Assembly (NCBI GenBank): GCA_020429915.1
Contig: JAGQKV010000015.1
Span: 65,593 to 129,592, forward strand
Origin: Candidatus Omnitrophota bacterium
Lineage (GTDB): Bacteria > Omnitrophota > Gorgyraeia > Zapsychrales > Zapsychraceae
Direction of reading: 5' to 3'
Length of the DNA: 64,000 nucleotides
The notes below the pieces were generated by a model. That model had not been told where the DNA came from and did no database searches. It worked only from the letters and a program-made list of their open reading frames with translations. Positions 1 to 27,026 of this stretch are shown here, piece after piece. Made by a program: the position numbers and the translations under genes. The first letter of the stretch is position 1. Every line of letters begins with the position of its first letter.

Positions 1-242
1 TCGCCCTGCGCGTTGCTCGCCTCCACCTGAATGGATTTCGCGGCCCGCCCGTCAGCGGTCACCGCGTCCACGATTTCGTTGGCCTCATGCCACAAGTCAC
101 TGCGAACGATCTGATCTTCCAGGGCCTCCCAATTGGTGACAAAAACAGCAAAGATCACCCCGCCCATTACCGAGATCATCAGGACCACGGCCAGCATCTC
201 GGTCAAAGTGAAACCAGTCTGGGAACGTCGGGTCCGCTGCAT
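1..242 (-). CDS. Pseudopilin/minor pilin with prepilin-type N-terminal cleavage/methylation motif. Partial: the N-terminus is at 242 and the C-terminus lies beyond the window start.
   Basis: Reverse-strand translation from the ATG at 242..240 gives MQRTRRSQTG|FTLTEMLAVVLMISVMGGVIFAVFV..., a class III signal peptide with Gly at -1 and Glu at +5. It is not in the ORF track because it runs off the window. Confidence 0.6.
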   Translation of the reverse strand, partial: MQRTRRSQTGFTLTEMLAVVLMISVMGGVIFAVFVTNWEALEDQIVRSDLWHEANEIVDAVTADGRAAKSIQVEASNAQG

Positions 243-243
243 C

Positions 244-2424
244 TTACACCCCTCCGTTCCGGCGCAACTGGATGATGATCGACCGCGTCTCACCGCTGCG
301 TAAGTCCTGGATGACTTCCGAGTGCGGCTGATAATTGGCCGGGTCGTGGTTGATATCCAGACCGTGATTCCGCGTTCCGGTCTGATAATAACCGTCGGCG
401 GGCAGTCCCAACGGCGGCCAGGTCTCCGGAATATTGCTAAAGGTCGCTACCCCGCCGCCGGTAGTGACCTGCGTGAGATTTGATCCGGAGTACGGATCGA
501 GGACCACGGCCACCCCGTCCATCGGTTGCCCCGTGGTCTGATCGAAAACCGTTACCGTGACATTGGCAAAACCGCGCGGCCACATGCGTGCATCGTAGTC
601 GGTGACGGAATCCGTATTGATCGGGACGTCATACCCACTGGAACCGCGGCGAACATACTGATCGTTACCCACGGACTCATTGGTGTAGTAACCGCTGCGT
701 TGCGCCGAGAAGCGGTAGTTGTTGGTCTGCAGTCGAAAACCGGTTTGGGCCGGGTCACAGGCGATTTGATAGTCGCCGGTGGCATCGGTGGTATCCGTTA
801 CCGAGATGTTCACGCTCACACCCTGCAAGGCGTTGCCCGTGGCATCGTCGATCAAGGTACCGCCGACGTTGCCGCAATTTTGGTCCTGCACCGGAATGAC
901 AAGCGTGCCGATATCGCGCGGCGGGTCCCCGGGAAGGAGCGGGCCGGGGTACAAGCGGTTACTGTCCCGGCTGACATTTTGCAGTAGATCGCAACAGGTC
1001 ATCACGGCCACCTGGCCGTTGGCCCACACCTCCAGAAAATTTCGGTTGGGATCGGATGCCGGGAACATGGCCTGGACCGCCGGGACGCTAAAGGTGAAGT
1101 TTCCATTACCGTCTGTCGAGGCGGTTTGCAATTGAGTCCCTTTGCGCCAATCCTGATAATCGCTGCGTGGCCAGCGCGCGCGCACCGTGGCATTGGCTAC
1201 CGGCTGTCCGTTGCTGTCGATCACCCGTCCGGTAATAAGCACCTCGGGAACCGGCGTGACGGGAAGGTCGAGCTGAATGTTATCGCCCGGACGGACCTCA
1301 ATCCGGTCGGCCGCGCTGCTGCCGAAATAGGGATTGGAACAGATCAGGCTCATATCGTCCTGGACCACTGCCGTGGAAAATCCCTCCCTCTGATACTGAT
1401 ATGTGCAGGAAGGCGCCCCGGCCGCGCCGACCGCGTAGGCATAACCCAGCCGAAAGGCGTCGGTGGTGTTAACAGTGAAGTACTGAGGATCCGTGTCGTC
1501 GAAGGCGATTGTAAAGTTGTAGTCGCGCCGGTTGCTGGTGCGCGTCACGCGCGATCCGTTTTGATACAAATTAATTTGGCCGCGACTGAAGGTGGAAATC
1601 AACTGGCCCGTGCTCTGATCAATTACATTGCCGAAAATATGCGCTTCGTCCGGCTTGGGCGTCAGACAAAACGACAGGTCCGCCTTTTCTTCGTTGGGAC
1701 TGATCGTGATCGGCACGGGATGCGTGTACGGCTGGTAACGGTTGTCATTGACCGTCAGGATATAGGAGCCGGCCGGCAGGATAAAGCGGCCCTGACCGAA
1801 GTTATCAAAACCGTCAAACTCGGCAAAACTGAAGTTGGCGCCGTCATCATCCGTAAAACCCACCGAGGTGGTGCTGTAGGAAGCTGTCGAGGTGGTCGAG
1901 TCGAGTTCGACGCGGATCCCGCCGAGCGGGTCCATGGAAGCATCCTCGGAGCAAACAAAACCCTTCAGATTTCCGGCCAGCGGATCGGGCGGCCGCGACA
2001 AATAGGCCACGGAGCGGCGCTGCTGGGCCATCCCGTTGAGATCCTGCCAGGTCACGCTGACCACCGTCCTTTTCAGTTCCGGACTGCCGTTAACCAGGGT
2101 CACCTGCAGCGAACGGTCGAACCCGCCGAAGATGGTATCACCTGATAAATCACGTAGACCGCAGTCCAAATCGGCATTGTCCGGCGGAAAATCGCAGCGT
2201 TCCAGCATGTCAAAGACGGTATCCGCCTGCGCGACGCGCCGGACCTCTTCCTGGCTTTGCTGCAACAAGTTGGTTGCCGTGACGATATCACGCGCCATCG
2301 CCTGGCTGCGGGTCATCACGGACACCGAAACCCATCCGGCAACGCTGATCAGCGATATGACGACCACACCGACCATCATCTCCACCAGCGTTAGGCCCTG
2401 CTTGTTACGATTGACTAACAGCAT
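244..2424 (-). CDS. 726-aa prepilin-type protein with repeated carboxypeptidase-regulatory-like beta-sandwich domains. Putative pilus-tip or minor-pilin adhesin.
   Basis: N-terminus MLLVNRNKQG|LTLVEMMVGVVVISL is a class III signal with E at +5. At least four copies of a [ST]G-x-V-x-D-x-x-TG-x-P-[IML]-x-G-[AV]-x-V motif follow (GRVIDSNGQPVANATV, GTLIDDATGNALQGVSV, VTVFDQTTGQPMDGVAV, GNVIDQSTGQLIS). It is co-oriented and contiguous with pilQ. Confidence 0.65.
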   Translation of the reverse strand: MLLVNRNKQGLTLVEMMVGVVVISLISVAGWVSVSVMTRSQAMARDIVTATNLLQQSQEEVRRVAQADTVFDMLERCDFPPDNADLDCGLRDLSGDTIFGGFDRSLQVTLVNGSPELKRTVVSVTWQDLNGMAQQRRSVAYLSRPPDPLAGNLKGFVCSEDASMDPLGGIRVELDSTTSTASYSTTSVGFTDDDGANFSFAEFDGFDNFGQGRFILPAGSYILTVNDNRYQPYTHPVPITISPNEEKADLSFCLTPKPDEAHIFGNVIDQSTGQLISTFSRGQINLYQNGSRVTRTSNRRDYNFTIAFDDTDPQYFTVNTTDAFRLGYAYAVGAAGAPSCTYQYQREGFSTAVVQDDMSLICSNPYFGSSAADRIEVRPGDNIQLDLPVTPVPEVLITGRVIDSNGQPVANATVRARWPRSDYQDWRKGTQLQTASTDGNGNFTFSVPAVQAMFPASDPNRNFLEVWANGQVAVMTCCDLLQNVSRDSNRLYPGPLLPGDPPRDIGTLVIPVQDQNCGNVGGTLIDDATGNALQGVSVNISVTDTTDATGDYQIACDPAQTGFRLQTNNYRFSAQRSGYYTNESVGNDQYVRRGSSGYDVPINTDSVTDYDARMWPRGFANVTVTVFDQTTGQPMDGVAVVLDPYSGSNLTQVTTGGGVATFSNIPETWPPLGLPADGYYQTGTRNHGLDINHDPANYQPHSEVIQDLRSGETRSIIIQLRRNGGV

Positions 2425-2511
2425 GTCACATTCCGGTTCCTACTGAGACGTTAAACAGAAAAACCCCACTCTTCGAAGTGAGGTTTTTCCTGATTCTTCC
2501 GCACACCGGGG

Positions 2512-5502
2512 TTATTCCCGGCCGTGAACAATCGTCGGGATGACCGTAATAATCAGTTCGGTGTCGACGGCGGTATTTCTCTCGTAGCTGAATAGATTTC
2601 CGAAAAGCGGGAGGTCCCCGAAAAACGGCACTTTGAACAGGCTTTGCTTGTCCTCCTGGTTGAGAATTCCTCCCAACACAAAAGGCTGTTTGTTTTCGAC
2701 GCGCACGTGCGCCGTAGCCTCACGCGTGCGTACCTGCGGAAACTCGTCGTTCGGCCCGCGGAACGCCACGATAAAACTCACTTCCGGTTCCACCTTCATG
2801 ACCACAAAGTTCTGCTCGATGATCGAGGGCGTGATCGTCAAACGGATACCGGGTTCCACAAAGCGGACGTCATTGGTCACGACACCGCCGGTGATATTGG
2901 TGATCGTATACGGGACTTCATCGCCGACGAAAATTTCCGCCTGTTTCCCGTTGAGCGTGGAGACCCGCGGCGCGGACAAGACCTTCGCCTTGTTCTGCTG
3001 CTCCAGCATACGGATGGTCGTTTCGAATTGCAGCGGATTGCGCTGGATCTGAGCGATCCGGTAGAACCCGCTGTCGGAGTTCTCGACATCGTCGAAGTCC
3101 TGCGGCCGGCCGCTTTCCTGATACAACAGGTTGATCTGATCGGACCAGTCCACACCGAGATCCTTGAGCGCGTTTTTGTCGACTTCGATAATCTTGGCCT
3201 CCAGGATCACCTGCGGCTGCGGATTATCGAGCATTTCCACGAGCTGTTCGACCTGGGCTACATCCTTCGGGTCACCGGTCACCATCAGACTGTTGAGCTC
3301 TTCGCTGATGCTGACATTGTCCGCCAGGTCTTCCACCAGGTTTTTGGCTTCCTGCACGTTGACGTTGCGGACCTTGATCATCCGCGAGACCTTATTCTCG
3401 TAGCGTAGCTTTTCGTTTTCCGTAATAAACAAGGCTTGGCCGACCAGCTTGAAGCCCAGATCATACGAGTTGGCGACAAGCAGCAACGCGTCTTCCAATG
3501 TGATTTGCTTCAGGTGCAGATCGAGCGTATTGCTCTTCAATGCCGGGTCGAGCATGATGTTCATGTCACCGGCTTCGCCCATAATCAGGAGTATGTCGGA
3601 CAAATTCGTATTATCGAAATCCAGATCGATCCGCTTGTTGCGGTTCTGCACCGGGATGGCCTTGCGAACGATCTCTTCCGCCGTGACGACCGTAGTCTTG
3701 TCGGCCGGTTTGGCCTTCACTTCCGCCGGTTGCGGTTCTTCTGCCGTCATCTGGATATCGGCGGCCTCTTTGAGGGCCTGGTCGATTTTTAGATTCCGGC
3801 TGATGTCTTCAACGGTCTGTTCTTCGACGGGAACTTCCCAATAGTCCAGCGCGGCGACCTCTTCCTTAAGCAATCCGCTGGGACTGAGCTTGCGCTTGAT
3901 CTTGGTCGCCAGGTCCTCTTCCGGTTCATGCATCGGCGTATCTTCCACGGCTTCCGCGGTGTCGTCGGACGCCGGATCTGTGCGCATGGAATCCCGCAGG
4001 GCCTTAAACTCGGCCTCCATGGATTCCTCGGTGCGCTTGCCCTTTTCCTTGGGCGACTTGATCGTCTTTTTACTGACGGCCTTTTCCGCGGGCTTGACTT
4101 GGGCCGCGTCCATCGCTGCCTGCTCGTCCGCCGGCGGAGTCACTTTCTCGGGCTCCGGTTGTTCCGGTTCCGTCTCCGGAATGTCCTGTTGATAAACGAT
4201 ACCTTTATTCATGACCACTTCCGGTTCCGCGGCCTTCTCTTCGGCATCTTCCTTGACATCGATAATGACCGGGTTGGGTAATGTCTTAAGCGGTTCGTCG
4301 GTGACCTTGGCCAGCAAGATTTCCTCCGGTAGATCTTCGGGGTCCGGCATCACCATGACCACCGATTCGGCCTCCGCCTGGGATGCTTCCTCCGTATACA
4401 CGACTTCGTGCTCGGGAGCAGCGGTAGGACGGACAGAGCTGGCGATTTGCCCCAATTCATCGTCTTTCACGATCCGTGCGGCTTCAGTTTCCTCTGCGTG
4501 TAATAACTCGCGCATCTCTTGGAACCTGGCATCCGCCACGACGGCAATCTCGTCGGACTCCACTTCAGCGGGACCGGCGGCATGGGCTTCGGTGGCGGCG
4601 ATGCGCTCACCTTTGACAAAAATCGCCTTCAGCCCCGTAAAAAATCCCCTTTTCTCCTGAACATCTTCTTCCGCTTCCGGCATCTCTGCTGCGGAGGCGG
4701 TCTCGACGGCCACCGGTTCATCAGAACTGTCGCCGACATCTTCCATGATTTCCTGTAAAATCTTATCTTCCGCCGACTTGACCTGATCGGCTTGCGCCTG
4801 CGCAAATTGGACGGTCCGCGCTTTCTGCACCGCGGGGTCCTCGGTGTAAGCCGGCTCCGTCTCCGGCAATACGACAACCGGCTCGTCGGTCTCGGCGATC
4901 TTCTCGGGCATATCCTGGGCGATCTCGGCCTTGCTCATTTGGACGGTTTCTTCATCCCCTGAGTTAACCTTCTTCCACAGGGAACTGAAGGGCTTGACCT
5001 TCGGGGTATCACTCATGGCCTGGATTTGCTCCGGCTCCTTGACTGATACCGGCTCCGGTTGGGCGGAAGGCTGGCGTTCAGCTTTGGATGCGGTATCCCG
5101 GCCACGCAAGGCTGCGCTGATCTGCTCTTCCACCGCGGCAGCCATTTCCGGTCCCAGTTCGGGTTCCGGCTCGGCCTTCGCCATAACAGCTTCCGGTGTA
5201 CTCGGCCAGCCGAGTCCGAGCGAGATTTCTTCCCGTTCCAGCGAGTCGGCGATAAAATCGTTCTGTTCGTCGACCAGTGTCGACGATTCGAAATCCACGT
5301 CGCTGTAGTTGGTCCGCTCCCGGGCACGGTCCTGTCCGGTTTCCCGCTCTCCATAGTAGTCAGGACGTTCTTCCTTTAACAGTTTCCAAATTTTGGCCTT
5401 TTGCACTTGGGCCGGGTCGTCCTCGGCCCGCACGATTCCGGTTACCGACATCGTTCCCGTCGCCACCAGCGCGCACAGTATCGTCGTCAATGTCCTTTTC
5501 AC
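2512..5502 (-). CDS. pilQ: Type IV pilus secretin PilQ, 996 aa, with a ~500-aa acidic Glu/Pro/Ala/Lys-rich low-complexity N-terminal region.
   Basis: The C-terminal ~400 aa show secretin-family hallmarks (VLSAPRVSTLNGKQAEIFVGDEVPY, GGILNQEDKQSLFKVPFFGDLPLFGNLF). It sits downstream of pilP in a pilMNOPQ arrangement and has a signal peptide. Confidence 0.85.
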   Translation of the reverse strand: MKRTLTTILCALVATGTMSVTGIVRAEDDPAQVQKAKIWKLLKEERPDYYGERETGQDRARERTNYSDVDFESSTLVDEQNDFIADSLEREEISLGLGWPSTPEAVMAKAEPEPELGPEMAAAVEEQISAALRGRDTASKAERQPSAQPEPVSVKEPEQIQAMSDTPKVKPFSSLWKKVNSGDEETVQMSKAEIAQDMPEKIAETDEPVVVLPETEPAYTEDPAVQKARTVQFAQAQADQVKSAEDKILQEIMEDVGDSSDEPVAVETASAAEMPEAEEDVQEKRGFFTGLKAIFVKGERIAATEAHAAGPAEVESDEIAVVADARFQEMRELLHAEETEAARIVKDDELGQIASSVRPTAAPEHEVVYTEEASQAEAESVVMVMPDPEDLPEEILLAKVTDEPLKTLPNPVIIDVKEDAEEKAAEPEVVMNKGIVYQQDIPETEPEQPEPEKVTPPADEQAAMDAAQVKPAEKAVSKKTIKSPKEKGKRTEESMEAEFKALRDSMRTDPASDDTAEAVEDTPMHEPEEDLATKIKRKLSPSGLLKEEVAALDYWEVPVEEQTVEDISRNLKIDQALKEAADIQMTAEEPQPAEVKAKPADKTTVVTAEEIVRKAIPVQNRNKRIDLDFDNTNLSDILLIMGEAGDMNIMLDPALKSNTLDLHLKQITLEDALLLVANSYDLGFKLVGQALFITENEKLRYENKVSRMIKVRNVNVQEAKNLVEDLADNVSISEELNSLMVTGDPKDVAQVEQLVEMLDNPQPQVILEAKIIEVDKNALKDLGVDWSDQINLLYQESGRPQDFDDVENSDSGFYRIAQIQRNPLQFETTIRMLEQQNKAKVLSAPRVSTLNGKQAEIFVGDEVPYTITNITGGVVTNDVRFVEPGIRLTITPSIIEQNFVVMKVEPEVSFIVAFRGPNDEFPQVRTREATAHVRVENKQPFVLGGILNQEDKQSLFKVPFFGDLPLFGNLFSYERNTAVDTELIITVIPTIVHGRE

Positions 5503-5948
5503 TTCGCTTCCCCTCGTTTCAGCGTTACCGTCTGTTCGCCATTCGTTAATATCACTTCATCCGGTCCGATTTTGGTTATGGTGAAGTCTTTCAGTTTATC
5601 GTCTTTGCGGTACGTTCCCTTATCCTGTCCGCTCTTGAGAAAAGCCACGTATTCGTCGTTTTCCTTGAAGACGCCTAAAAACTTAAAACGCTTAAGATCC
5701 TGTCCTTGTTGCGGAATGCCGGCAAAGACCGGCGACTTTCTTTCTTCCTGGATGAGCGGCTCGAACGGATCACGGGTCACATCAATCGCCGCCTTCTTGG
5801 GTTTAAGAATGAGTTTCGCCAATTGCTCGTCGTCGATCTTCTCCAAGACGGGTTTGGCGACAACCGGTTTCGCCTCGGTCTTGAATCCGGCCAGGTCGCA
5901 TCCGGCGGCCAGCAATACGGTCATCATCGTCAAAGTCAGTCGTTTCAT
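5499..5948 (-). CDS. pilP: Pilus assembly lipoprotein PilP.
   Basis: Lipoprotein signal MKRLTLTMMTVLLAAGC. Called from size (149 aa) and its position between pilO and pilQ; its start overlaps the pilO stop. Confidence 0.55.
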   Translation of the reverse strand: MKRLTLTMMTVLLAAGCDLAGFKTEAKPVVAKPVLEKIDDEQLAKLILKPKKAAIDVTRDPFEPLIQEERKSPVFAGIPQQGQDLKRFKFLGVFKENDEYVAFLKSGQDKGTYRKDDKLKDFTITKIGPDEVILTNGEQTVTLKRGEAK

Positions 5949-6580
5949 CGGGTCTCAATCTCCGAGAGTTGTTTCAGGCTATAGATTTTCAGAGTATACT
6001 CGCATTTCAACGTCGGATAGTCACGTCCGGACTCGATCTCGACATTGGAAACTGTCACCAGTTGCTGAAACTCGTCCAACGTGTCGAAGAACTTCAGCAG
6101 CGAATCAAAATTCCCTTCGATCTTCATGTTGATCGGCATCGCCGCCAGAGTAATAATCTTGTCAATCTTCTGCCGCCGTTCGCGGTCCAGCTGAGCCGCG
6201 GTCTTTTTGCGCTCTTGATACCGGGTCTGGGCGGTGTCCACGTCCACTGAACGGACTTCCCGGAAGGCCTTGGTCTTCATGTCGGTGATGCTGACTTCGG
6301 CAGCCTTTGCCATTTGGGATATATCGTCGAGAAAGGCGGGGATGTCCTGCTCCTGGAACAAGGCCGCCTCGAATTCGGCTTTCTCCTGCTCGTAGCGGGC
6401 GATCTTGGCCTTGATCAGCCGGATCTCCTCCTGGACCACTTCCATTTCATATTGCTTCTTGTCGAAGTCCTCCTGTGCCGCGGTGTACAAACGGAAATTG
6501 TGGACCGAGATCGCAATCAAAGCCGCGATCGTCAGCAGCGTGAGTCCGGTAAATAGTTGACTAATTCTCTTCTTGTTCAT
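5945..6580 (-). CDS. pilO: Pilus assembly protein PilO.
   Basis: Single N-terminal TM helix followed by a coiled-coil and a C-terminal domain; 211 aa. Called from gene order, immediately after pilMN, and from overlapping starts and stops. Confidence 0.55.
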   Translation of the reverse strand: MNKKRISQLFTGLTLLTIAALIAISVHNFRLYTAAQEDFDKKQYEMEVVQEEIRLIKAKIARYEQEKAEFEAALFQEQDIPAFLDDISQMAKAAEVSITDMKTKAFREVRSVDVDTAQTRYQERKKTAAQLDRERRQKIDKIITLAAMPINMKIEGNFDSLLKFFDTLDEFQQLVTVSNVEIESGRDYPTLKCEYTLKIYSLKQLSEIETR

Positions 6581-8069
6581 CGGTGTCCGTTTCGCGCGGT
6601 TCTTCGTCCTTGAGTTTGGCCAGGATGCCGAAATTCAGGATCTTTTGATCGGCGACTTCTCCTTCCTTGAGAAAGTCAAACTTGGCCTTATCCAAAATCG
6701 CCGAATCTTCGATCCGTCGGATCATCTCAGCGATGGATTCCATTTTTAGCGCCTGCCCCTTGATGGTAGCGCGACCTTCTTCATTAAAGCGGAACGATTT
6801 CAACGCCAGCTCCTCGGGAAGTTCGTTAGCGACCACGGCAAACACCTGAGCCCACGAGACGCGGTTCAACTGCTGCACGTAAGTGGCCTGCGCCAGGAAG
6901 CGCTGGCGGATCGCGTCATACTCATGATGCTGCGCGTAAAGCTCCTGGGCCTCTCCCTTCAAAAAGCGGGTCTTGCCTTCGGCGGCCCGGCTCTGCAGGA
7001 CATACTGTTTGGTATGCGCATTAAGCCAGTGGTTGCCTTCATTAAAGAATATCCCAAAAAACGCAATGATCAAGGCGGCCATGGCCCCGGCCTTCAGTGC
7101 GTACCGGGTCATCTGAAAGCGGCTGAAGAAGTGTTGTAAGTTATACTGCGGCTTGATCTTGTGAATATATCCCGAGATCGGCGACAAGGCCGTGGCATAG
7201 ATCGGATTGAGCGGATAATTCTCGGTCGTTTTAATTTTGGGAATCTTGCGGACATCGAGGATCTCGACCGGGTTGTCGAATGCATCGGCCAGGTACTGAT
7301 CGAGATTCGGCGCGACCTCTTTATCCCACACCAGCCAGATCTTGTTAATACGGATGGTCCGGTTGTCCAGCAAATAGGCCTTGAGCGCTCGCTTCAATTG
7401 GGATGCCCAGTCGTTGGCGATCATCTTGATCTGTTCCTGGGACACGGTGTGCTGGAATTGATTCAATCCCGCCGGCATGATGTAAAAGTTTTTGTATTGG
7501 TGCGAGTCGTAAATGCTCAAGTAGGTCTGTCTGTCGGAGACGACCACACAGGCGTCACAATCGTAAACGTGATCGATTTTGTTGGTGACGTCCCGGAAAT
7601 TCAACGGAGTCAGTTCGACGTGTTCAAAGGGAATACCGGTGCGGTGAATCTCGCGCAGCACGGCATCGAGAACGTCACGCCGGATCGCCGCCAGGATCAC
7701 CCGGACCTTGTCGCGGCCGAGCGGATATTTGCGGTAAATGTAGTCGTATTCCTGTCGGTGAAAGGCGGGAATTTTCTCGATCTCCGACGTGACGACCGTC
7801 TCGAATTCCCGCTTGGTGAGCTTGGGCAGGGTCAGCTGGTGAATCACGGTGTCCTTGCGCGAAATGGACACAAAGATCCGGGTCGGCTTGACCTGCTCCT
7901 CTTTGATCAGCGACTTGATCGACTGACACAGCGCACGCGGCGACAGGATATCGAAATCGATCTTCGCCTTGCCCGCCTTGAGGATCGTATTGCTGAAAGG
8001 ACTGGATTTGAGATAGACATACCGGATGAAGTCATCCGATATGTCTATCCCGAGGTATTTGTTTAGCAT
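6561..8069 (-). CDS. pilMN: Fused PilM-PilN pilus assembly protein: an actin-like ATPase-fold PilM domain joined to a TM-anchored PilN domain.
   Basis: The N-terminus LGIDISDDFIRYVYL resembles the PilM GIDIG start. About 330 aa of cytoplasmic domain are followed by a TM helix (AMAALIIAFFGIFF) and a ~150-aa PilN-like periplasmic part. At 502 aa it matches PilM plus PilN, and it sits between pilA and pilO. Confidence 0.65.
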   Translation of the reverse strand: MLNKYLGIDISDDFIRYVYLKSSPFSNTILKAGKAKIDFDILSPRALCQSIKSLIKEEQVKPTRIFVSISRKDTVIHQLTLPKLTKREFETVVTSEIEKIPAFHRQEYDYIYRKYPLGRDKVRVILAAIRRDVLDAVLREIHRTGIPFEHVELTPLNFRDVTNKIDHVYDCDACVVVSDRQTYLSIYDSHQYKNFYIMPAGLNQFQHTVSQEQIKMIANDWASQLKRALKAYLLDNRTIRINKIWLVWDKEVAPNLDQYLADAFDNPVEILDVRKIPKIKTTENYPLNPIYATALSPISGYIHKIKPQYNLQHFFSRFQMTRYALKAGAMAALIIAFFGIFFNEGNHWLNAHTKQYVLQSRAAEGKTRFLKGEAQELYAQHHEYDAIRQRFLAQATYVQQLNRVSWAQVFAVVANELPEELALKSFRFNEEGRATIKGQALKMESIAEMIRRIEDSAILDKAKFDFLKEGEVADQKILNFGILAKLKDEEPRETDTDEQEEN

Positions 8070-8094: not shown

Positions 8095-8493
8095 TTATGC
8101 TCCGGAGCATGTTCCCGGAAGCGTGTCCCCGCCGACCGTTACTTCCACGGTGCTGCAGGCCACTTTCCCGGCATTGATATCACCGGCCGCGACATCAGGA
8201 GAATCTTCGATGTCATAACCGCCGCCGAACGGATTTTCGGGAACTTCTTCCAGAAAGTTTCCGTCCGTCAGGTCGGTGATGTCGGCACATTGCGTCCAAT
8301 CCCGCTCCTGGGTGTAGCACATAAACAGCGCCACGTTAATGGTGTTCAGATTGCTTTGGTGTGCGGTCACGTTCCCGCGTTCGATGGCCTGCAAGACGTT
8401 CGGCAGGATCAGCGACAACAGGATCCCGGCCACAACCAAGACGATCAGAATTTCTGTGAGGGTAAACCCTTTTTGCTCGTTGATTCGCTTCAT
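8095..8493 (-). CDS. pilA: Type IV major pilin, prepilin with a class III signal.
   Basis: MKRINEQKG|FTLTEILIVLVVAGILLSLILP has E at +5. The C-terminal Cys pair (CSTVEV...GTCS) fits a pilin D-region disulfide. The AGGGAG RBS lies 9 nt upstream of the ATG at 8493, so the ORF-track start at 8544 is an upstream extension. Confidence 0.75.
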   Translation of the reverse strand: MKRINEQKGFTLTEILIVLVVAGILLSLILPNVLQAIERGNVTAHQSNLNTINVALFMCYTQERDWTQCADITDLTDGNFLEEVPENPFGGGYDIEDSPDVAAGDINAGKVACSTVEVTVGGDTLPGTCSGA

Positions 8494-8735: not shown

Positions 8736-9938
8736 TCAATGCATCAATCCCTGCCAAACCGAGAATATCGGCATATAAATGGCCAAGAGGGTGACCAGCA
8801 CGATGGCCCCCACGATCAGAATCAGGGCGGGCTCGAGGTAGGTAAAAAACCGGCTCTGCTTGTAGTCGACTTCCTCGTCGAAATGATCGGCCAGATGCGC
8901 GAAGGCCTGGGAGATCGTCCCGCTGGACTCGCCCACGCCGACCATCTCCACAAACATGACCGGAAACAGCGGCACCTCCCGGAAGGAATCATACAGGCTG
9001 TTTCCTCGTTCCACCTTTTTCTGCACGGCGTCGATCTGGTCCGCCACGAATTCGTTGGATGCCGTTGTCTTGGCCACACGGAAGCTGTCAATGATCGGCA
9101 GACCGGAGGCGACCAGGATGCTGAGAGACCGGACGAACCGTCCGAGGGTGAGCGCGCGCAGGATATCGCCGAAGACCGGCAGTTTCAACTTTTGGCGGTC
9201 CATCCCGTAGCGGAACCGGGCACTCCGGGAGAGCGATCGGTAGCCGATGGTGCCGCCGATCACCAATATTATTATACCCAAGATCGTCCACGGAGAACGC
9301 AGGAATTCGGAAATACTGAGGACCATTTGGGTGAAAAACGGCAGCTCGACTTTGAGCCTGACGAGGACTTTCTGGTAAGTGGGCACGAAGAACGTGAACA
9401 TACCCACAAAGACCGCCAAGGCAAAACAGATGACGAATATGGGATACCACGTCGCGCGGCGGACACGCGCCACAAAGACACGCTGGTACTCCAGGTGCTC
9501 GGTCAGCCGGCGCAGAATGGTGGTCAGCCCCCCCGCCTTTTCGGCAACCTCGATCATCGCCCGGTAAATCCCGGGAAAGATCCGCGGGAAGTCCTCCAAC
9601 GCAGCGGAGAGCGTCTTGCCCTCCTCGAGGCGGTTACGCAGGTGGCTGATGACCAGCTGCATCTGCTTGTCCTCGGTCTGCCGCCACAGAATGTGCATCG
9701 CCCCCAGGATGGGAATCCCGGAATCGATCAGCGACGACAGACGCCGGGTAAAGACCAACAGCGATTCGAGATCCACTTTTTGATTAAAGATCTTCTCGCG
9801 ATGGGCGGGTTCGGCGGCGACGAAGAAGTAATTGGAATGCCGCAGGCGCTTCTTGAGGTCTTTTCTATCGTAGGCGTCGGTAAAGCCGTGGAGAGTTTTG
9901 CCGGTGTCGTCTTTGAGTTTGTAAATGTACGTGCGCAT
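8736..9938 (-). CDS. pilC: Type IV pilus inner-membrane platform protein PilC, GspF family.
   Basis: 400 aa with two GspF-type repeats and three TM segments. Typical motifs include GIPILGAMHIL and VGESSGTISQAFAHLADHF. Confidence 0.9.
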   Translation of the reverse strand: MRTYIYKLKDDTGKTLHGFTDAYDRKDLKKRLRHSNYFFVAAEPAHREKIFNQKVDLESLLVFTRRLSSLIDSGIPILGAMHILWRQTEDKQMQLVISHLRNRLEEGKTLSAALEDFPRIFPGIYRAMIEVAEKAGGLTTILRRLTEHLEYQRVFVARVRRATWYPIFVICFALAVFVGMFTFFVPTYQKVLVRLKVELPFFTQMVLSISEFLRSPWTILGIIILVIGGTIGYRSLSRSARFRYGMDRQKLKLPVFGDILRALTLGRFVRSLSILVASGLPIIDSFRVAKTTASNEFVADQIDAVQKKVERGNSLYDSFREVPLFPVMFVEMVGVGESSGTISQAFAHLADHFDEEVDYKQSRFFTYLEPALILIVGAIVLVTLLAIYMPIFSVWQGLMH

Positions 9939-9962: not shown

Positions 9963-11612
9963 CTATCCGTCCAGCAATACGTTGCGGATCGTCTCGTGAA
10001 ATTCGGTTGTCTGGGCCACGACCTTTTCCATCCCGGAAACGGCCAGCGGCTTCATCTTCTTGGTTTTGGCCATATCGACGATCTCCGATTCTCCGGCCGT
10101 CTTGATGATAAGATAGCGGATATCCTCGTCCATCTTGAGGATCTCGTAGACCCCGACGCGGTCCTGGAAACCGGTACCGGAACAGGACTCACAGCCCTGC
10201 GGCTTCGCCAAAACAAAGCTCTTGGCATCCGGGATATATTCACGGATTTTTTGCTGGGCCTCGGGGCAGCCGGGTTCGGTTGTCTTGCAACGCGGACAAA
10301 GCCGCCGCACCAGCCGCTGGGAAATCACCCCTGCCAGCGCGCTGCTGATCAGAAACGGTTCGATGTCCATCTCCAGCAAGCGGGTCACCGCGCCGACCGC
10401 CGAATTGGTATGCATGGTGGAAAGCACCAGGTGTCCGGTCAGGGCGGCGCGGATGGCGATCTCGGCCGTCTCCTTATCACGGATCTCACCGATCATAATG
10501 ATGTCCGGATCGTGCCGGAGAATATGGCGGATGGCCTTGGCAAAGTCGTAACCGATATGCAGATTGGTCGCAGTCTGGTTGATACCGGGGAGTTCATATT
10601 CGACCGGGTCCTCGACGGTGACGATACTGCGGTCGACCTGGTTGAGCTGGTTCAGCATGCTGTAGAGCGTGGTGGTCTTCCCCGCCCCGGTGGGCCCGGT
10701 GAGCAGGATCAGCCCGTAAGGTCGGGTCAGCAGCTGCTCGATATCTTTTATTTGCTCCGGGGTCATCCCCAAGTCCCCGAACGAGCGGTTGGCAAAAGCG
10801 GTGCTCAGGATCCGGACCACCATGTTTTCCCCGTTTATGTTGGGCAGTGTGGAAATCCGCAGGTCATACTCTTCGTTGCCCACTTTAAAGTGACAGCGTC
10901 CGTCCTGCGGCCGGCGAGTCTCGGCCACATCGAGACCGGATATAATCTTGATGCGTGAAATGCAGTTGCGCTGAAGTTCCCGGCTGATGGACTCCTTTTC
11001 ATAGAGATAGCCGTCGATCCGGAAGCGGACACGCATCACGTCCCGCTGCGGTTCGAAGTGTATATCGGAAGCCCTTTCCTTGACCGCCCGGCGGATGATG
11101 GAGTCGACGTAGTTGATCACCGACGCGTCGTCGACCACGACCGCGCTGGAGGCTGCCTTCATCGACTTGCCGGTTTGTACCGCATCAAAATACTCCTGAA
11201 GGGTGTGCTCGATATCGCGCGCGCTGGCCATGACCGGATACACGGAATAACCGCTCTTGATCTGAATGTCCTGCAGGGCGTTGACGTCCAGGGGATTGTT
11301 GGTAGCGACCATCAGGCGCTGGTCCTCCACGGAAATCGGGACAACCCGGTGGGCCTGCAGCAACTCAAACGGGACTAATTTAATGACCTCGGGATCTATG
11401 CGCTGTTGGCTCAGCTGGATGTAGGGAATTTGATGCAGACGCGAGAGACTTTCGGTCAGCCGCGGCTCATCGATAAAACCGCGGTCCAGCAGCAATTCTC
11501 CCAGCCGCCGGTTGTCAGTCTGCTGCAGCGCCAGGACTTCATCCAACTGGCGTTGCTGAATAATCCCTTCTTCGCAAAGGATTTCACCGAGTTTTTGACT
11601 TTTGCCATGCAT
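9963..11612 (-). CDS. pilB: Type IV pilus assembly ATPase PilB, GspE family.
   Basis: Walker A box LLTGPTGAGKTTTLYS; Asp and His boxes; a C-terminal tetracysteine motif CPRC...CESCSGTG. An AGGAG RBS precedes the ATG. Confidence 0.9.
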   Translation of the reverse strand: MHGKSQKLGEILCEEGIIQQRQLDEVLALQQTDNRRLGELLLDRGFIDEPRLTESLSRLHQIPYIQLSQQRIDPEVIKLVPFELLQAHRVVPISVEDQRLMVATNNPLDVNALQDIQIKSGYSVYPVMASARDIEHTLQEYFDAVQTGKSMKAASSAVVVDDASVINYVDSIIRRAVKERASDIHFEPQRDVMRVRFRIDGYLYEKESISRELQRNCISRIKIISGLDVAETRRPQDGRCHFKVGNEEYDLRISTLPNINGENMVVRILSTAFANRSFGDLGMTPEQIKDIEQLLTRPYGLILLTGPTGAGKTTTLYSMLNQLNQVDRSIVTVEDPVEYELPGINQTATNLHIGYDFAKAIRHILRHDPDIIMIGEIRDKETAEIAIRAALTGHLVLSTMHTNSAVGAVTRLLEMDIEPFLISSALAGVISQRLVRRLCPRCKTTEPGCPEAQQKIREYIPDAKSFVLAKPQGCESCSGTGFQDRVGVYEILKMDEDIRYLIIKTAGESEIVDMAKTKKMKPLAVSGMEKVVAQTTEFHETIRNVLLDG

Positions 11613-11792: not shown

Positions 11793-14291
11793 TTACTTCT
11801 TTAACTGGCTCATGCGTATACCGTTAGCATCCTGTCCGGCGGCCTTTTTGGAGAGTTCTTTAGGAACACTCACGGTCATTTTCAGACGGCCGTCATCGAG
11901 CAGGCTTTCATTTTCGATCTTGATGTGCGGGCCGATGTCCTCGACCGGTATCCCGTACTGATTGGCCACATTGGAGATAGCCAGCTGCAGGGTCATCTTG
12001 CGCATCATCTGATAGCGTAATTTTTCGTCCATGTTTTCAGTCTTGATCGGATAGGAAATCTGCGTGAAGTACAGCCGGTTCGGGTCCTGCTCGATCTTGG
12101 CGGCGACTTCGCTTTCATCCGCTTGCTCGGTACCGGCCTGAGCCTCAGCGCCTTCACTGACCGATTTGGGGGGCGGCATGGCGGCGACCTGCGGCTTCAT
12201 TTCGGCTGACTTATCCTGAGCCATTTCCAGCGGCTTGGATTCCATGGCGTCCGCGGTATTGGCCCCGATCTTGATTCCCAGCATCCCCTTCTTTAGGTCG
12301 GGAGCCGGTACGGCCGTCACTTTGATTTCCTCTTTGACCTCTTCTTTGCTCTGCTTGGCCATGGTTTCTTCCTTCTGGTCCATCGCCGGAGCCTTGGCTT
12401 CTTTGGCTAACATCGAAGCCTTATCTTCTTTGTTGGTCATCGGTGCCTTGGCTTTTTTAGCCATGACCGGTTGACCGTCGATATGAATGTTGTAAACGCT
12501 GATTTCGTCGCGGTCATAGTCGGCAACGTAAATCTGTCCGTTACTCGCGCTGATGGCCGACAATTTCGGGAAGTAGCTCCGGCCCTGTCCGTCCGATCCG
12601 AATTCCGTGATCAACTCTCCGTCGCTGTCAATGACCTTGACGGTGTGCGAGCCGCGGTCGGCAACATAAAGGTTGTCCGATTCGTCGAGCGCCATGTCTA
12701 CGGGCCAGTCGAATTCCACGAGGTCGCCGTAAGCGCCGATTTGCCGCAAGGGGGCCCCGTCTTTCTCGAAGATCTGGATCCGTTTGTTGCGGCTGTCCAG
12801 CACGTACAATTCCTCTTTCGAGTTGAACATCACCGCGGTGGGTTGATTGAATTGACCCAGCTGCGGAGGATTGTGATCCTCGTCGAGTTCCCCTTTCTGC
12901 CCGAAGGCATTGAGGTAAATCCCATCGCTGTTGAAAATCTGGATCCGGTTGTTCTTGGTATCCGCGACATAAATGTTTCCGTTATCGGACACGGCCACGC
13001 CGGACAGTTGATCGAACTGTCCGTTTTGGTCGCCCTTGCGGCCGAAGAAATAGTCATGACTACCGTCGCTGTCGAGAAACTGCAGACGGTTGTTGCCGGT
13101 ATCGGCGACCAGCAATTTTCCGTCTTCCTGCACGTGCATTGCCCGCGGGTTTTGCATGAGCAGCTTGGAGTTGTCAAAGTCTCCGTAAACGTAAAGTTCG
13201 TTCATATGCTGATGCAGAATGTGTCCGGTTGCCTCCGAGAGGGCGAACAGTCCGTATTCCTCATTAAAGCTGATGTCGGAGAGTGCCTTTTCCGCGAAGA
13301 TCGTCTCGGCAAAGTCAACGATAGGCAGGCGCTGATCCGCCGGCTGTAGCATCGCCTTATCGCTGCCGTTGACCTCGATAATCTGCACGCGTTTGTTCTT
13401 GGCATCCGCGATATAAACCTTGCCATGCTCGTCGGTGATGATACCTAACGGATGATCGAATTGTCCGCGTCCGATCCCTTTGGATCCGAAGGACAGCAGC
13501 AAATTTTGTTCCTGATCGATTTTAACGATACTGTCCGTCCATGAGTCGATCAGATAAAGATCGCCACGGGCATCAATGGCCAACCGGGCCGTGTCCGCGA
13601 TATAGTCACGGCCTTCCCAGTCAAACTCGATAATCTCCGGCATGCCGCCTTCGATGTGCCGTTTGACGATCTTCCCTTCTTTGGGATACAGCACGTACAT
13701 GTTGTTCTGAATGTCGAACGCCATGTCCGCCGGGCGGCCGTCCAAGGGCATGGACTCGAAATAAACACCCTTGGGTGAAAACTTGGAAATCAGCCGGTTG
13801 GCGATGTCGGCCACATAGATGTAGCCGTCATTGTCCAGAGCGACCAGGGTCGGTTCTCCGAATTGGCCGGCCTGGTCCCCGGAATTTCCGATTTGATAGA
13901 GATAGCGTCCCTGGGCGTTGAAGACCAGGACGCGATTATTTCCGGTATCGGCGATGATGATTTCTCCGTCCGCAGAGATCGCCAGCGACTCGGGGTTCAG
14001 GAGCTTCCCTTTACCCGTTCCGTACTCGGCGAAGCGGAACGTGAATTCACCCGCGGGATTGAAGACGTTGACTTGGCTCAGGCGCTGGTCCAGAACATAG
14101 ATGTTCCCGTCCGGAGACAAGGCCACATCGACCGGCATCTGCATCTCTGAACGAAGCTCTCCCACAAAACTCACCGATTCCTTGGAATCGACCGTGGTCG
14201 CTCCGAACAAAAGAAGGGTCAGGGCGATAAACATCGGGATCAGCCCGTCCCTCACATATCTTTGGTTCATGGCAGCGGCTACTGTTTTCAT
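11793..14291 (-). CDS. Secreted NHL-repeat protein with two beta-propeller blocks, a Lys/Ala/Glu-rich linker and a C-terminal domain.
   Basis: Many NHL-like repeats (ADTGNNRVLVFN, ADAKNKRVQIIE, ADTGNNRLQFLD, ADTKNNRIQIFN, DSRNKRIQIFE). Start set at MKTVAAAM..., which has a signal peptide and a perfect AAGGAG RBS; the ORF-track start at 14387 is an extension. Confidence 0.75.
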   Translation of the reverse strand: MKTVAAAMNQRYVRDGLIPMFIALTLLLFGATTVDSKESVSFVGELRSEMQMPVDVALSPDGNIYVLDQRLSQVNVFNPAGEFTFRFAEYGTGKGKLLNPESLAISADGEIIIADTGNNRVLVFNAQGRYLYQIGNSGDQAGQFGEPTLVALDNDGYIYVADIANRLISKFSPKGVYFESMPLDGRPADMAFDIQNNMYVLYPKEGKIVKRHIEGGMPEIIEFDWEGRDYIADTARLAIDARGDLYLIDSWTDSIVKIDQEQNLLLSFGSKGIGRGQFDHPLGIITDEHGKVYIADAKNKRVQIIEVNGSDKAMLQPADQRLPIVDFAETIFAEKALSDISFNEEYGLFALSEATGHILHQHMNELYVYGDFDNSKLLMQNPRAMHVQEDGKLLVADTGNNRLQFLDSDGSHDYFFGRKGDQNGQFDQLSGVAVSDNGNIYVADTKNNRIQIFNSDGIYLNAFGQKGELDEDHNPPQLGQFNQPTAVMFNSKEELYVLDSRNKRIQIFEKDGAPLRQIGAYGDLVEFDWPVDMALDESDNLYVADRGSHTVKVIDSDGELITEFGSDGQGRSYFPKLSAISASNGQIYVADYDRDEISVYNIHIDGQPVMAKKAKAPMTNKEDKASMLAKEAKAPAMDQKEETMAKQSKEEVKEEIKVTAVPAPDLKKGMLGIKIGANTADAMESKPLEMAQDKSAEMKPQVAAMPPPKSVSEGAEAQAGTEQADESEVAAKIEQDPNRLYFTQISYPIKTENMDEKLRYQMMRKMTLQLAISNVANQYGIPVEDIGPHIKIENESLLDDGRLKMTVSVPKELSKKAAGQDANGIRMSQLKK

Positions 14292-14324
14292 TTCCGTCTC
14301 CTTCATTGCGGGGTTCGGCGGGGC

Positions 14325-14365
14325 AAAAAAAAAACTGCCCATCCCTAAGACAAAGGAATAGGCAG
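14325..14365 (-). terminator. Intrinsic-terminator-like hairpin plus U10 tract in the NHL gene leader; candidate riboswitch expression platform.
   Basis: Reverse strand reads CUGCC-[21 nt]-GGGCAG followed by UUUUUUUUUU, about 25 nt upstream of the RBS. Confidence 0.45.
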
Positions 14366-14385
14366 CTGACCTGCAGAAATGATGC

Positions 14386-14482
14386 ACATCATTCGATTCG
14401 GTAACTGGCTATCCTATTCTTAGGACCCTTTAGCTTTGCGTCGCCGGGTTACCCCGGGTTTGCCTTTATCGTCGTAACGATA
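14386..14482 (-). ncRNA. Candidate c-di-GMP-I (GEMM) riboswitch aptamer.
   Basis: Reverse-strand RNA reads ...GAUAAAGGCAAACC-CGGGG-UAA-CCCGG-CGACGCAAAGCU-AAAGGGUCCUAAGAAUAGGAUAGCCA-GUUACCGAAUCG. It reproduces GGCAAACC, a P2 hairpin with a GNRA loop, GACGCAAAGC, a P3 hairpin carrying a CCUAAG/UAGG receptor-like motif, and GUUACCGA, in the order found in the Vibrio cholerae Vc2 aptamer. It lies between a sigma70-like promoter and the terminator hairpin. Confidence 0.55.
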
Positions 14483-26204: not shown

Positions 26205-27026
26205 TTGCCCATGCGGATTTCCCTGGCGATCTTTATTATCCTTCTCGGCATCTCGCTGTTGACCTACCGCAACGGATTGCGCGGTGAGTTTATGCACGAA
26301 GATATCGCCTATCTGCTCAGTTCATCGTTCCGTGTCCCGGTGAATGCCATGAATGACGCCTTTCTTCCCCGCGCCGACGATAATTTCTATCGTCCGCTGA
26401 CGCGGATTTACGATTCATGGACCTATCAGCGGTTCGGTGAAAACATGCTGCCGCACCGGCTGATCAATATCATTTGCCTGACCCTGACCGGCGTCCTGGT
26501 CTTTCTGCTGGTCAAAAATATTACGTCCCATACGGGCACCAGCCTGCTGGCCTCCATCCTCTTCTGCGTGCATCCGATCAATTCCACACCCGTCCTGTAC
26601 GTGGCGATGCCTGTGATGCCGTATGCCACGCTCTTTCTGCTCAGCATGCTGTGCTATACCGATTTCTTCGAACGGCGGCAGCGCTGGGACCTGTTGTTGT
26701 TAAGCGGTCTGTGTTTTGCGTTGAGTTTTCTCGTGCACGAGATCATCTTGTGCCTGCCGGTCTATGTCTTTCTCTATGCCTGGCAGCTGCGTGGAAGCGG
26801 ATGGCGGACCGCTGTCCTGCATACCATACCGTACCTTAATCAGGCCCACCGCTGGAACCCCGATTCGTCCGCGGTCCATCACAACGCGGCCATGAGTTAC
26901 TTTGCCTTGGGTAACGCCCACCGCGCGGAGGAATTGTTGTTGCGGGCGCAGAAATTCGATCCGGAATCGACCACCGTGCGGGACAGCTTGAAAAAAGTCC
27001 GCCGGTATCTGGAGTCCTATGAATAG
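26205..27026 (+). CDS. TMTC/DUF1736-like membrane protein with a short C-terminal TPR; shorter paralogue of the next gene.
   Basis: Shares FLPRADDNFYRPLT / HRLINI / HPINST blocks with the next gene (FLMDDFPRV...YLRPVT / HLLSL / HPINGV). Its stop overlaps the next gene's start. Confidence 0.5.
   Translation: MPMRISLAIFIILLGISLLTYRNGLRGEFMHEDIAYLLSSSFRVPVNAMNDAFLPRADDNFYRPLTRIYDSWTYQRFGENMLPHRLINIICLTLTGVLVFLLVKNITSHTGTSLLASILFCVHPINSTPVLYVAMPVMPYATLFLLSMLCYTDFFERRQRWDLLLLSGLCFALSFLVHEIILCLPVYVFLYAWQLRGSGWRTAVLHTIPYLNQAHRWNPDSSAVHHNAAMSYFALGNAHRAEELLLRAQKFDPESTTVRDSLKKVRRYLESYE

Follow-up and report, generated by a model that had tools for sequence, protein, structure and literature searches.

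In the type IVb minor pilins CofB, TcpB and LngB, a pilin domain is followed by beta-repeat and beta-sandwich domains, and a trimer at the tip initiates pilus assembly. The modular pilins were surveyed by Raynaud et al. (2021, PMC8179133), where the combination IPR012902-PF13620 is the third most frequent, with 66 proteins (Dataset S1); modular pilins were argued to be exposed at the filament tip, the PF13620 modules were suggested to bind carbohydrates, and the functional prototype is PilB of Streptococcus sanguinis, in which a pilin module is joined to a vWA module. Since our literature search found no characterised modular pilin of the PF13620 type, function has to be carried over by analogy. 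The architecture is already catalogued, and the protein described here adds to an existing class, to which it contributes a multi-domain example; this class has been counted, and the search found no experimental study of it. The host lineage, Omnitrophota, consists of uncultivated, mostly ultra-small bacteria that are thought to be attached to, or to prey on, other cells; type IVa pili are near-universal in this group, have been proposed to serve in host attachment, and type IV pili represent its most widespread candidate attachment organ (PMC10066038).

The gene in question occupies positions 244..2424 on the minus strand, as do all features described below, of the window, that is, of the whole stretch of 64,000 nucleotides analysed from Candidatus Omnitrophota. 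It is complete, with an ATG start at 2424 and a TAA stop at 244-246, and encodes 726 amino acids, which bears out the prepilin-type reading frame of the original prediction. We argue that its product is probably an unusually large, modular minor pilin that belongs to a filament system resembling type IVa pili. Modular pilins are defined by the union of an N_methyl motif and a domain foreign to pili, and here PF07963 and PF13620 occur in one protein. Specifically, a class III leader peptide, MLLVNRNKQG (residues 1-10, 2395..2424), is recognised by both Pfam and NCBIfam, the prepilin-peptidase site is predicted after Gly10, and the N-terminus reads MLLVNRNKQG/LTLVEMMVGVVVISLISVAGWV (here and below, the slash marks the cleavage site), with Gly at -1 and Glu15 at +5, i.e. 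with the signal and the glutamate typical of type IV pilins. The proposed signal, QG/LTLVEMM with Glu at +5, is thus confirmed, with the N_methyl model (PF07963, 25.7 bits, cut-off 21.2) and TIGR02532 (20.0 bits, cut-off 16.3) both matching above their cut-offs. The mature protein would comprise 716 residues (computed values ~78 kDa, pI 4.5). Eight cysteines are invariant in the family alignment, as fits an extracytoplasmic protein.

The leader is followed by the alpha-1 helix (residues 11-65, 2230..2394), delineated by AlphaFold2 and hhalign, with a hydrophobic alpha1N that carries Glu15 and an amphipathic alpha1C; the helix spans residues 13-65 in one AlphaFold2 model and 7-65 in another. 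In hhalign comparisons, the pilin module aligned with alpha1 of Escherichia coli GspJ and GspG (probabilities of 93% and 89%, respectively), and across GspG-K and PpdA-C/YgdB of E. coli the alignment was confined to alpha1, so that no subtype was obtained. Of the NCBIfam subtype models, those for GspG (0.013) and GspH (0.042) gave weak N-terminal matches, and those for GspI, GspJ and PilV gave none. The globular part of this small module (residues 66-145, 1990..2229; AlphaFold2) consists of a short helix, a loop with the invariant Cys77 and Cys88, a three-stranded antiparallel sheet and the linker SRPPDPLAGN. A Foldseek search of the module against the PDB gave no significant match, and sequence profiles of the whole family and of the N-terminal module, when compared with the PDB, gave marginal matches to pilin alpha1N and to the carboxypeptidase D regulatory domain.

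The remainder of the protein is a string of beta-sandwiches. Searched with PF13620 (CarboxypepD_reg), the whole protein matches far above chance (E=6.3e-21, 75 bits against a cut-off of 32.3) in four stretches, and the AlphaFold2 model (pLDDT 82) places a 53-residue N-terminal helix (13-65) and the three-stranded sheet before five sandwiches; with a pTM of 0.46, the model does not tell whether the domains are arranged as a rod or packed compactly. Each of the five strand blocks contains 6-8 strands, mostly at pLDDT 80-95, in keeping with a seven-stranded beta-sandwich. The expectation of at least four CarboxypepD-reg-like repeats, arranged in tandem on an N-terminal pilin helix, is therefore upheld. 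The first sandwich, D1 (residues 146-257, 1654..1989), is defined by AlphaFold2 strands and a sub-threshold PF13620 match of 22.5 bits, and its profile matches the carboxypeptidase D regulatory domain 5aq0 (E=0.023). D2 (residues 258-392, 1249..1653) was delimited by AlphaFold2 alone: it had no match when scanned singly against Pfam, the D5 profile matches it at E=1.7e-5, and an insertion at approximately 332-374, modelled with low confidence, holds the invariant Cys340 and Cys362. The best CarboxypepD_reg match is D3 (residues 393-515, 880..1248; also modelled by AlphaFold2), the sole domain to exceed the PF13620 cut-off when scanned singly (36.6 bits against 32.3), which contains the invariant pair Cys477-Cys478. 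D4 (residues 516-617, 574..879), with the invariant Cys517 and Cys556, scores 23.7 bits with PF13620 and 18.6 bits with PF13715, and the C-terminal, presumably distal D5 (residues 618-726, 247..573) scores 20.9 bits with PF13620; both are modelled at pLDDT > 90. D5 carries a conserved ETWPP motif, in which E667, W669 and P670 are kept in at least 90% of 84 relatives; together with His687, the motif makes up a conserved patch. Each module opens with a degenerate motif: GFVCSEDASMDPLGGIRV at residue 155, GNVIDQSTGQLIS at 265, GRVIDSNGQPVANATV at 399, GTLIDDATGNALQGVSV at 522 and VTVFDQTTGQPMDGVAV at 624. The repeat consensus proposed originally, [ST]G-x-V-x-D-xx-TG-xP-x-G-[AV]-x-V, finds no exact counterpart in the protein when read literally and holds in such degenerate versions in all five modules.

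With respect to the kind of sandwich, the original prediction had named both CarboxypepD_reg and Cna_B. The former was found; Cna_B (PF05738) had no match in the 726-aa protein at E up to 10, and a Cna-B-type character is retained at the level of the fold class only. Foldseek matched the exported region to tandem CnaB/prealbumin-like pilins and adhesins of Gram-positive bacteria, with E down to 7.5e-15 (TIE, RrgB, SpaA, PitA, SdrD), and the top structural matches, RrgB, SpaA, BcpA, GBS52, PitA, SdrD and Bacillus anthracis TIE, are all CnaB/transthyretin-like. At 7-14% identity, what links the exported region to Gram-positive pilins and MSCRAMM B-repeats is the fold alone, and the assembly principle of the sortase-assembled pilins is unrelated, the 726-aa protein having no sortase motif. 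Isopeptide cross-links of the CnaB type are excluded for at least D2, D4 and D5, because the protein has six lysines in total and none in these domains. Taken together, the data support a prepilin-type protein with an exported part made up of consecutive CarboxypepD_reg/transthyretin-like beta-sandwiches. As in other members of the IPR012902-PF13620 class, a class III signal and a small pilin module are followed by a short linker and PF13620 domains, the gene is grouped with minor-pilin genes in a type IV filament cassette, and display at the tip is predicted. Unlike the class, which has one extra module, the protein has five consecutive, mutually diverged sandwiches; further differences are a diderm host, a secretin in the cassette, restriction to Omnitrophota and a fixed position in the cassette.

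The gene is encoded together with an assembly ATPase, a platform protein, a secretin and alignment proteins. In the direction of transcription, the cassette comprises the PilB/GspE-type ATPase with an N-terminal MshEN c-di-GMP-binding motif (9963..11612), the PilC/GspF-type platform protein (T2SSF, 8736..9938), a presumed major pilin of 132 aa with four cysteines (MKRINEQKG/FTLTE, 8095..8493), a PilM-PilN fusion of 502 aa (6561..8069), PilO (5945..6580), a PilP-like protein of 149 aa with weak GspC/HofP-type matches (5499..5948), and a secretin of 996 aa with Secretin and Secretin_N domains at its C-terminus (2512..5502). The secretin gene ends 87 nt upstream of the modular pilin gene, and a further prepilin gene begins 1 nt past the stop of the latter, so that the predicted placement between pilQ and another pseudopilin proved correct. 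This next gene (MQRTRRSQTG/FTLTEM, 174 aa) is cut by the window edge after its first 80 codons (2..242), and the third trailing gene, outside the window, encodes a PilX-like protein of 425 aa in which Glu5 is missing. A scan of 39 ORFs of the window detected no prepilin peptidase (Peptidase_A24) and no pilus gene outside the cassette, the remainder being housekeeping genes.

A cassette of this composition could also be taken for a T2SS-like machine, where the 726-aa protein would belong to the tip of a short periplasmic pseudopilus and its sandwiches, instead of serving in adhesion at the cell exterior, would bind secreted cargo or push it through the secretin. Indeed, the GspE, GspF and GspD models score the ATPase, the platform protein and the secretin nearly as high as the PilB, PilC and PilQ models do; the top NCBIfam match of the small pilin is the N-terminus of GspG; the cassette contains no retraction ATPase (PilT); and the giant exported proteins of Omnitrophota are often flanked by T2SS/T4P genes, with a giant ORF found 7 kb downstream in one of the related loci (L004). 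However, PilM-PilN, PilO and the PilP-like protein take the place of GspL, GspM and GspC, the small pilin stays below the GspG cut-off and has four cysteines, like disulfide-bonded type IV pilins, and the ~580-residue sandwich string far exceeds the size of GspH-K of E. coli K-12, the one T2SS compared (125-327 aa). Published surveys place the Omnitrophota clusters in T4aP (PMC10066038). We consider a secretion pseudopilus unlikely and hold to the pilus-like filament system, although the separation of T4aP from T2SS is not a clean one for this cassette.

The family to which the modular pilin belongs includes about 100 full-length cluster representatives, and those matches that name a phylum name Omnitrophota without exception; another large protein search, run with the family profile, added nothing to the first. 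In four loci where the full cassette was checked, the order E-F-pilin-MN-O-P-Q-[~720 aa]-[~170 aa]-[~425 aa] is kept, even between loci sharing only 38% identity, and the three trailing genes occur together in all 17 related loci examined. The modular pilin gene is a fixed component of the Omnitrophota pilus cassette. The ~425-aa protein has a PilX_N match in 8 of 13 orthologues and no Glu5; in this respect, with its PilX_N-type N-terminus, it resembles GspK and PilX, which are tip subunits. Minor pilins are likewise encoded together in the GspI-J-K and PilV-W-X (+PilY1) sets and in Thermus, where ComZ acts with PilA2; the bulky non-pilin beta-solenoid that ComZ carries at the tip finds a weak echo in the 425-aa neighbour, with its weak MinC_C and FapA matches. 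In contrast to the four or five proteins of the GspI-J-K and PilV-W-X sets, there are three here, PilY1 is absent, and the adhesin-like mass resides on a pilin instead of a separate PilY1 protein. A PilY1/PilC tip adhesin is itself rejected as an identity for the 726-aa protein, which has its own class III signal and no Pfam match to the C-terminal beta-propeller. With CofB, TcpB and LngB, compared by their published descriptions and general knowledge, the protein shares the size of a large minor pilin, the all-beta domains after the pilin module and the proposed role of a primer at the tip. Profile searches against the PDB detected no sequence similarity to them, and the setting differs: the machinery, with its PilMNOP proteins, is of a type IVa-like kind, and in place of a homotrimer the protein has a PilX-like protein and a small pilin as partners.

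Judged from its genetic context, the place of the modular pilin is probably in the tip complex. As it keeps Glu5 and its PilX-like partner does not, the latter is the likelier terminal cap. The retained Glu5 also means that a further subunit can dock below, and the protein could instead be a low-abundance subunit scattered along the shaft, its sandwich side arms raising avidity or driving aggregation: the proline-rich linker that joins D1 to the pilin module could give the sandwiches room to swing outwards, and a location in the filament body is possible with a flexible linker (Raynaud et al., PMC8179133). In each of the 17 loci, however, the gene is linked to those for one small pilin and the PilX-like protein without Glu5, a signature of priming or tip complexes, and a 580-residue appendage would have to thread through the secretin beside the fibre, which makes decoration of the shaft quite improbable. 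As for a non-filament, bitopic inner-membrane protein, anchored by the helix and using periplasmic sandwiches in a trans-envelope scaffold or for peptidoglycan binding, the pilin fold is not confirmed by fold search and the relatives carry Ala or Ser at -1 as frequently as Gly, so that processing may be less efficient, but this reading is very unlikely given that the whole x/F-T-L-x-E motif including Glu5 (x/[FLV][TS]LxE) recurs in 77 of 84 full-length representatives, a pattern hardly expected of a plain anchor, that the matches to the N_methyl and TIGR02532 models exceed the respective cut-offs, and that the gene lies among pilin genes, away from those for PilMNOP. Conservation of the motif and of Glu +5 (kept in at least 90% of the 84 relatives) argues for a helix that takes part in filament assembly, beyond mere membrane anchoring.

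From these comparisons we infer how the modular pilin would be processed, incorporated into the filament, brought to the tip and engaged with its ligand. The hydrophobic alpha1N would insert it in the inner membrane, where a prepilin peptidase, encoded outside the window, would cleave after Gly10 and N-methylate Leu11. Together with the co-transcribed ~170-aa pilin and the ~425-aa, Glu5-less PilX-like protein, a putative beta-solenoid, it would form a priming complex; the 132-aa major pilin would then polymerise on it, driven by the PilB-type ATPase. Since this complex would be the first to leave through the secretin, the modular pilin would end up in the tip complex, beside or beneath the Glu5-less cap. 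Its five transthyretin-like sandwiches, held by conserved disulfides, may then project as a rod, with attachment to host cells or particles as their likely role; the ligand would be a conserved component of that surface, possibly a glycan.

The proposed attachment or adhesin role of this stalk has to be seen in the light of its conservation. The median identity per domain is 29-38%, with the five sandwiches showing the same even level of conservation as the pilin module; no hypervariable head domain is present, none of the sandwiches stands out as a candidate binding head, and domain conservation gives no sign of diversifying selection, purifying selection acting family-wide. Such even conservation is less suggestive of a fast-evolving adhesin than of a conserved machine part or of a protein that binds a conserved ligand. 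A bolder proposal is that a three-protein tip complex, of the five-sandwich pilin, the ~170-aa pilin and the PilX-like beta-solenoid cap, replaces the four core minor pilins and PilY1 across Omnitrophota, with the 726-aa protein as the host-recognition device. We put this forward tentatively, as possible but rather doubtful; if true, it is through this protein that ultra-small, probably parasitic or predatory Omnitrophota latch onto their hosts, and the even conservation would point to a conserved ligand on the host surface. The family offers a concrete protein, open to recombinant production, as a candidate contact point of the Omnitrophota pilus, and the compact set of three minor-pilin genes could serve in tests of how pilus assembly is primed by tip complexes.

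Two minor features of the cassette are worth recording. The secretin has a long, acidic, low-complexity N-terminal region, and the intergenic region between its gene and the modular pilin gene (2425..2511) contains a 15-bp hairpin between an A-run and a U-run, with a dG of -30.1 kcal/mol (z = -2.8).

The open reading frame of the 726-aa protein, referred to here as the large pilin, lies exactly where it had been placed, at 244..2424 on the minus strand (726 codons, ATG at 2424, TAA at 244-246), and the class III prepilin signal attributed to it holds. Specifically, its N-terminus, MLLVNRNKQG|LTLVEMMVGVVVISLISVAGWV, combines a short, basic leader, Gly at -1 and Glu at +5 with a subsequent hydrophobic helix, and is recognized above cut-off both by NCBIfam TIGR02532 and by Pfam N_methyl (25.7 bits against 21.2; 28.5 bits for the pilin module in isolation). 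In hhalign comparisons with E. coli alpha1 helices, the pilin module matched GspJ, GspG and PpdA at 93%, 89% and 83% probability, respectively, with the alignments confined to alpha1. By its signal, Glu5 and this helix, the protein is, at the sequence level, a pilin, the pilin fold of its head being only predicted. The NCBI entry of the exact protein reads 'MAG: carboxypeptidase regulatory-like domain-containing protein [Candidatus Omnitrophica bacterium]', and named cluster members of the family are annotated only as hypothetical, prepilin-type or carboxypeptidase-regulatory-like.

A profile run against 1.84 billion cluster representatives returned 124 matches below 1e-30, ~100 of them single-stretch, full-length and roughly 650-800 aa long. 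The pattern x|[FLV][TS]LxE is present in 77 of 84 full-length representatives, the other seven being N-terminally truncated gene calls; such retention of the complete cleavage motif and of Glu5 speaks against a merely membrane-anchored periplasmic protein, an unlikely reading, and we predict with high confidence a processed filament subunit, that is, a modular minor pilin. Gly dominates the -1 position in bacterial type IV pilins; in this family, unusually, Ala equals it (Gly 34, Ala 34, Ser 7, Asn 1, Cys 1 in the 84 representatives). Compared with the large pilin of the window, family members have median identities of 34-43% over the pilin module and of 29-35% over the five downstream domains (D1-D5); conserved columns lie in every domain, Glu15, the Cys residues and the ETWPP motif of D5 being among them. 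Conservation is even along the chain, and the per-domain comparison revealed no hypervariable distal head. Scanning a single genome for each GTDB species yielded 16 loci, nine labelled Candidatus Omnitrophota/Omnitrophica, one 'MAG: bacterium' only, and six under the unconfirmed submitter label 'uncultured Planctomycetales bacterium'.

The observation that at least four carboxypeptidase-regulatory-like repeats follow the pilin module is well supported. Over the whole protein, PF13620 (CarboxypepD_reg) matches in four stretches (E=6.3e-21, 75 bits, cut-off 32.3), followed in rank by the related transthyretin-clan and Ig-like models PF13715, Big_1, DUF6795, MG4 and SpaA. The repeat motif proposed originally has no literal match, but a degenerate form, G-x-[VL]-x-D-x2-3-[TN]G-x-[PAL]-x-x-[GN]-[AV]-x-V, occurs at the start of all five modules (residues 155, 265, 399, 522 and 624). 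An AlphaFold2 model built from 16 family members (mean pLDDT 82) indeed places tandem beta-sandwiches on an N-terminal helix; its pTM is low (0.46), so that the mutual orientation of D1-D5 is not predicted. In the model, a disordered leader precedes an unbroken helix (13-65), a short helix, a loop with the invariant Cys77/Cys88, an antiparallel three-stranded sheet (102-143) and a Pro-rich linker, SRPPDPLAGN, beyond which there are five blocks of 6-8 strands each. Only D3 (393-515) exceeds the PF13620 cut-off by itself, at 36.6 bits; D1 (146-257), D4 (516-617) and D5 (618-726) score 21-24 bits, below it, and D2 (258-392), having no PF13620 match, is a sandwich in the model only, with a low-confidence insertion (332-374) that contains the invariant Cys340/Cys362. 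In D3-D5, pLDDT is mostly above 90.

Run against the PDB with Foldseek, the whole model retrieved tandem CnaB/prealbumin-like sandwiches, namely, B. anthracis TIE (E=7.5e-15), SdrD and the Gram-positive pilins RrgB, SpaA, BcpA, GBS52, PitA and SpaC, with the low TM-scores expected of a flexible multi-domain query. The 'Cna-B-type' designation is thus apt for the fold class but not for the family, Cna_B having no match in the Pfam scan, and the likeness to Gram-positive pilins is one of fold only. With six Lys residues overall and none in D2, D4 or D5, isopeptide cross-links are ruled out at least in these three domains; given eight Cys residues invariant across the family, disulfides are the more plausible source of stability.

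The architecture itself is already catalogued: 'N_methyl + PF13620', with 66 proteins, is the third commonest among modular pilins (Dataset S1 in Raynaud et al. 2021, PMC8179133). In the literature searched, we found no experimentally characterised member, nor any account of a type IV pilin carrying a carboxypeptidase-regulatory-like domain, and the Omnitrophota papers mention pilus clusters but not this protein. What is new, if modest, is a five-module version, a family of ~100 clusters in which every member naming a phylum names Omnitrophota, and a constant set of three minor-pilin genes that lacks PilY1.

The neighbouring genes are as claimed, with a secretin gene upstream and a further prepilin gene (MQRTRRSQTG|FTLTEM) that starts one base past the large-pilin stop and is interrupted by the window edge. 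The minus-strand operon runs from a PilB/GspE-type ATPase (9963-11612) through a PilC/GspF platform protein, a 132-aa pilin, a PilM-PilN fusion, PilO, a PilP-like protein and the secretin (2512-5502, 996 aa) to the large pilin; beyond the edge, a same-strain contig (L001) continues with a 174-aa prepilin, a 425-aa protein (12707-13984), a PAS-GerE regulator and a response regulator. The ten-gene order is unchanged in three more distant relatives (L004, L005, L006), where the large pilin is 38-56% identical, and in all 17 loci inspected the large pilin is accompanied by a pilin of ~160-170 aa and a PilX-like protein of ~413-437 aa. One could also envisage the tip of a type II secretion-like pseudopilus handling cargo, as the scores of the ATPase, platform protein and secretin do not separate T4P from T2SS and PilT is not in the cassette; PilMNOP and the disulfide-type small pilin favour a pilus, leaving this alternative improbable. 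Since the ATPase has an N-terminal MshEN domain and an MshE-type c-di-GMP motif (NF053729, 53.8 bits, cut-off 38), assembly of the pilus may be under c-di-GMP control.

The 425-aa protein, always encoded after the two pilin genes, begins with MKINNSDG|YLLIMSLAVALFL and lacks Glu5; its '...QEAFYAAE.G' helix is typical of PilX, and PilX_N (PF14341) matches eight of 13 orthologues (best E=3e-4). Several of the 13 show weak beta-solenoid matches (MinC_C, FapA), recalling ComZ, the Thermus minor pilin with a beta-solenoid; sequence search found no solved structural relative.

Minor-pilin complexes such as GspI-J-K or PilV-W-X/PilY1 prime polymerisation and remain at the tip, capped by the subunit without Glu5 (GspK, PilX; PMC8179133). 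The three genes after the secretin look like such a minor-pilin set. By analogy, the 425-aa protein would be the cap and the large pilin, which keeps Glu5, would lie beside or below it and extend its five sandwiches outward at the tip. The obvious candidate for the major subunit is the 132-aa pilin; dispersal of the large pilin along the shaft appears slightly less probable still than the pseudopilus. As the cassette has no PilY1, the large pilin may replace it as the source of bulky 'effector' mass. Carbohydrate binding has been suggested for PF13620 modules (Raynaud et al., PMC8179133), and the type IVa pili of Omnitrophota have been proposed to serve in attachment to hosts (Seymour et al., PMC10066038); a place in the tip complex with an attachment role is, by analogy, the reading that we moderately favour.

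Several features of these loci deserve mention. The 87 nt that separate the secretin and large-pilin genes (2425-2511, minus strand) fold into a 15-bp hairpin, GAAAAACCUCACUU-CGAA-GAGUGGGGUUUUUC, with an A-run and a U-run on its flanks (dG -30 kcal/mol, z -2.8). The hairpin could be a partial terminator or attenuator that keeps expression of the minor pilins below that of the machinery genes; it was not among the calls of a consensus terminator scan, and the spacer, 17 nt only in L005, is not conserved family-wide. Residues ~30-600 of the secretin form a ~570-residue acidic Glu/Ala/Pro-rich low-complexity stretch ahead of the conserved Secretin_N and Secretin domains, an extension that is variable, as orthologues range from 489 to 936 aa. 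In an ENA contig (L003), the identical large-pilin gene is followed, near the contig end, by a 351-aa ferredoxin/pyridine-nucleotide oxidoreductase-like gene (12183-13238) and no 174-aa pilin, probably an assembly chimera or strain rearrangement. The PAS-GerE (LuxR-type) and stand-alone response regulator genes (L001 14004-15355), candidate regulators of the pilus genes, are not at the corresponding position in L004-L006. Immediately upstream of the ATPase gene lies that of an 864-aa NHL-repeat beta-propeller protein (11793-14387, minus strand), with a similar one in L006 and none at that place in L004 or L005. A giant ORF of >2654 aa (L004 19036-22166) runs off the locus end ~7 kb downstream of the cassette, consistent with published accounts that often place the giant genes of Omnitrophota close to T2SS/T4P genes. 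Elsewhere in the window, two PMT_2/TPR glycosyltransferase-like membrane proteins (26205-28653) precede a plus-strand three-gene unit (28699-32881) encoding a MoxR-type AAA ATPase, a DUF58 protein and a transglutaminase-like protein.
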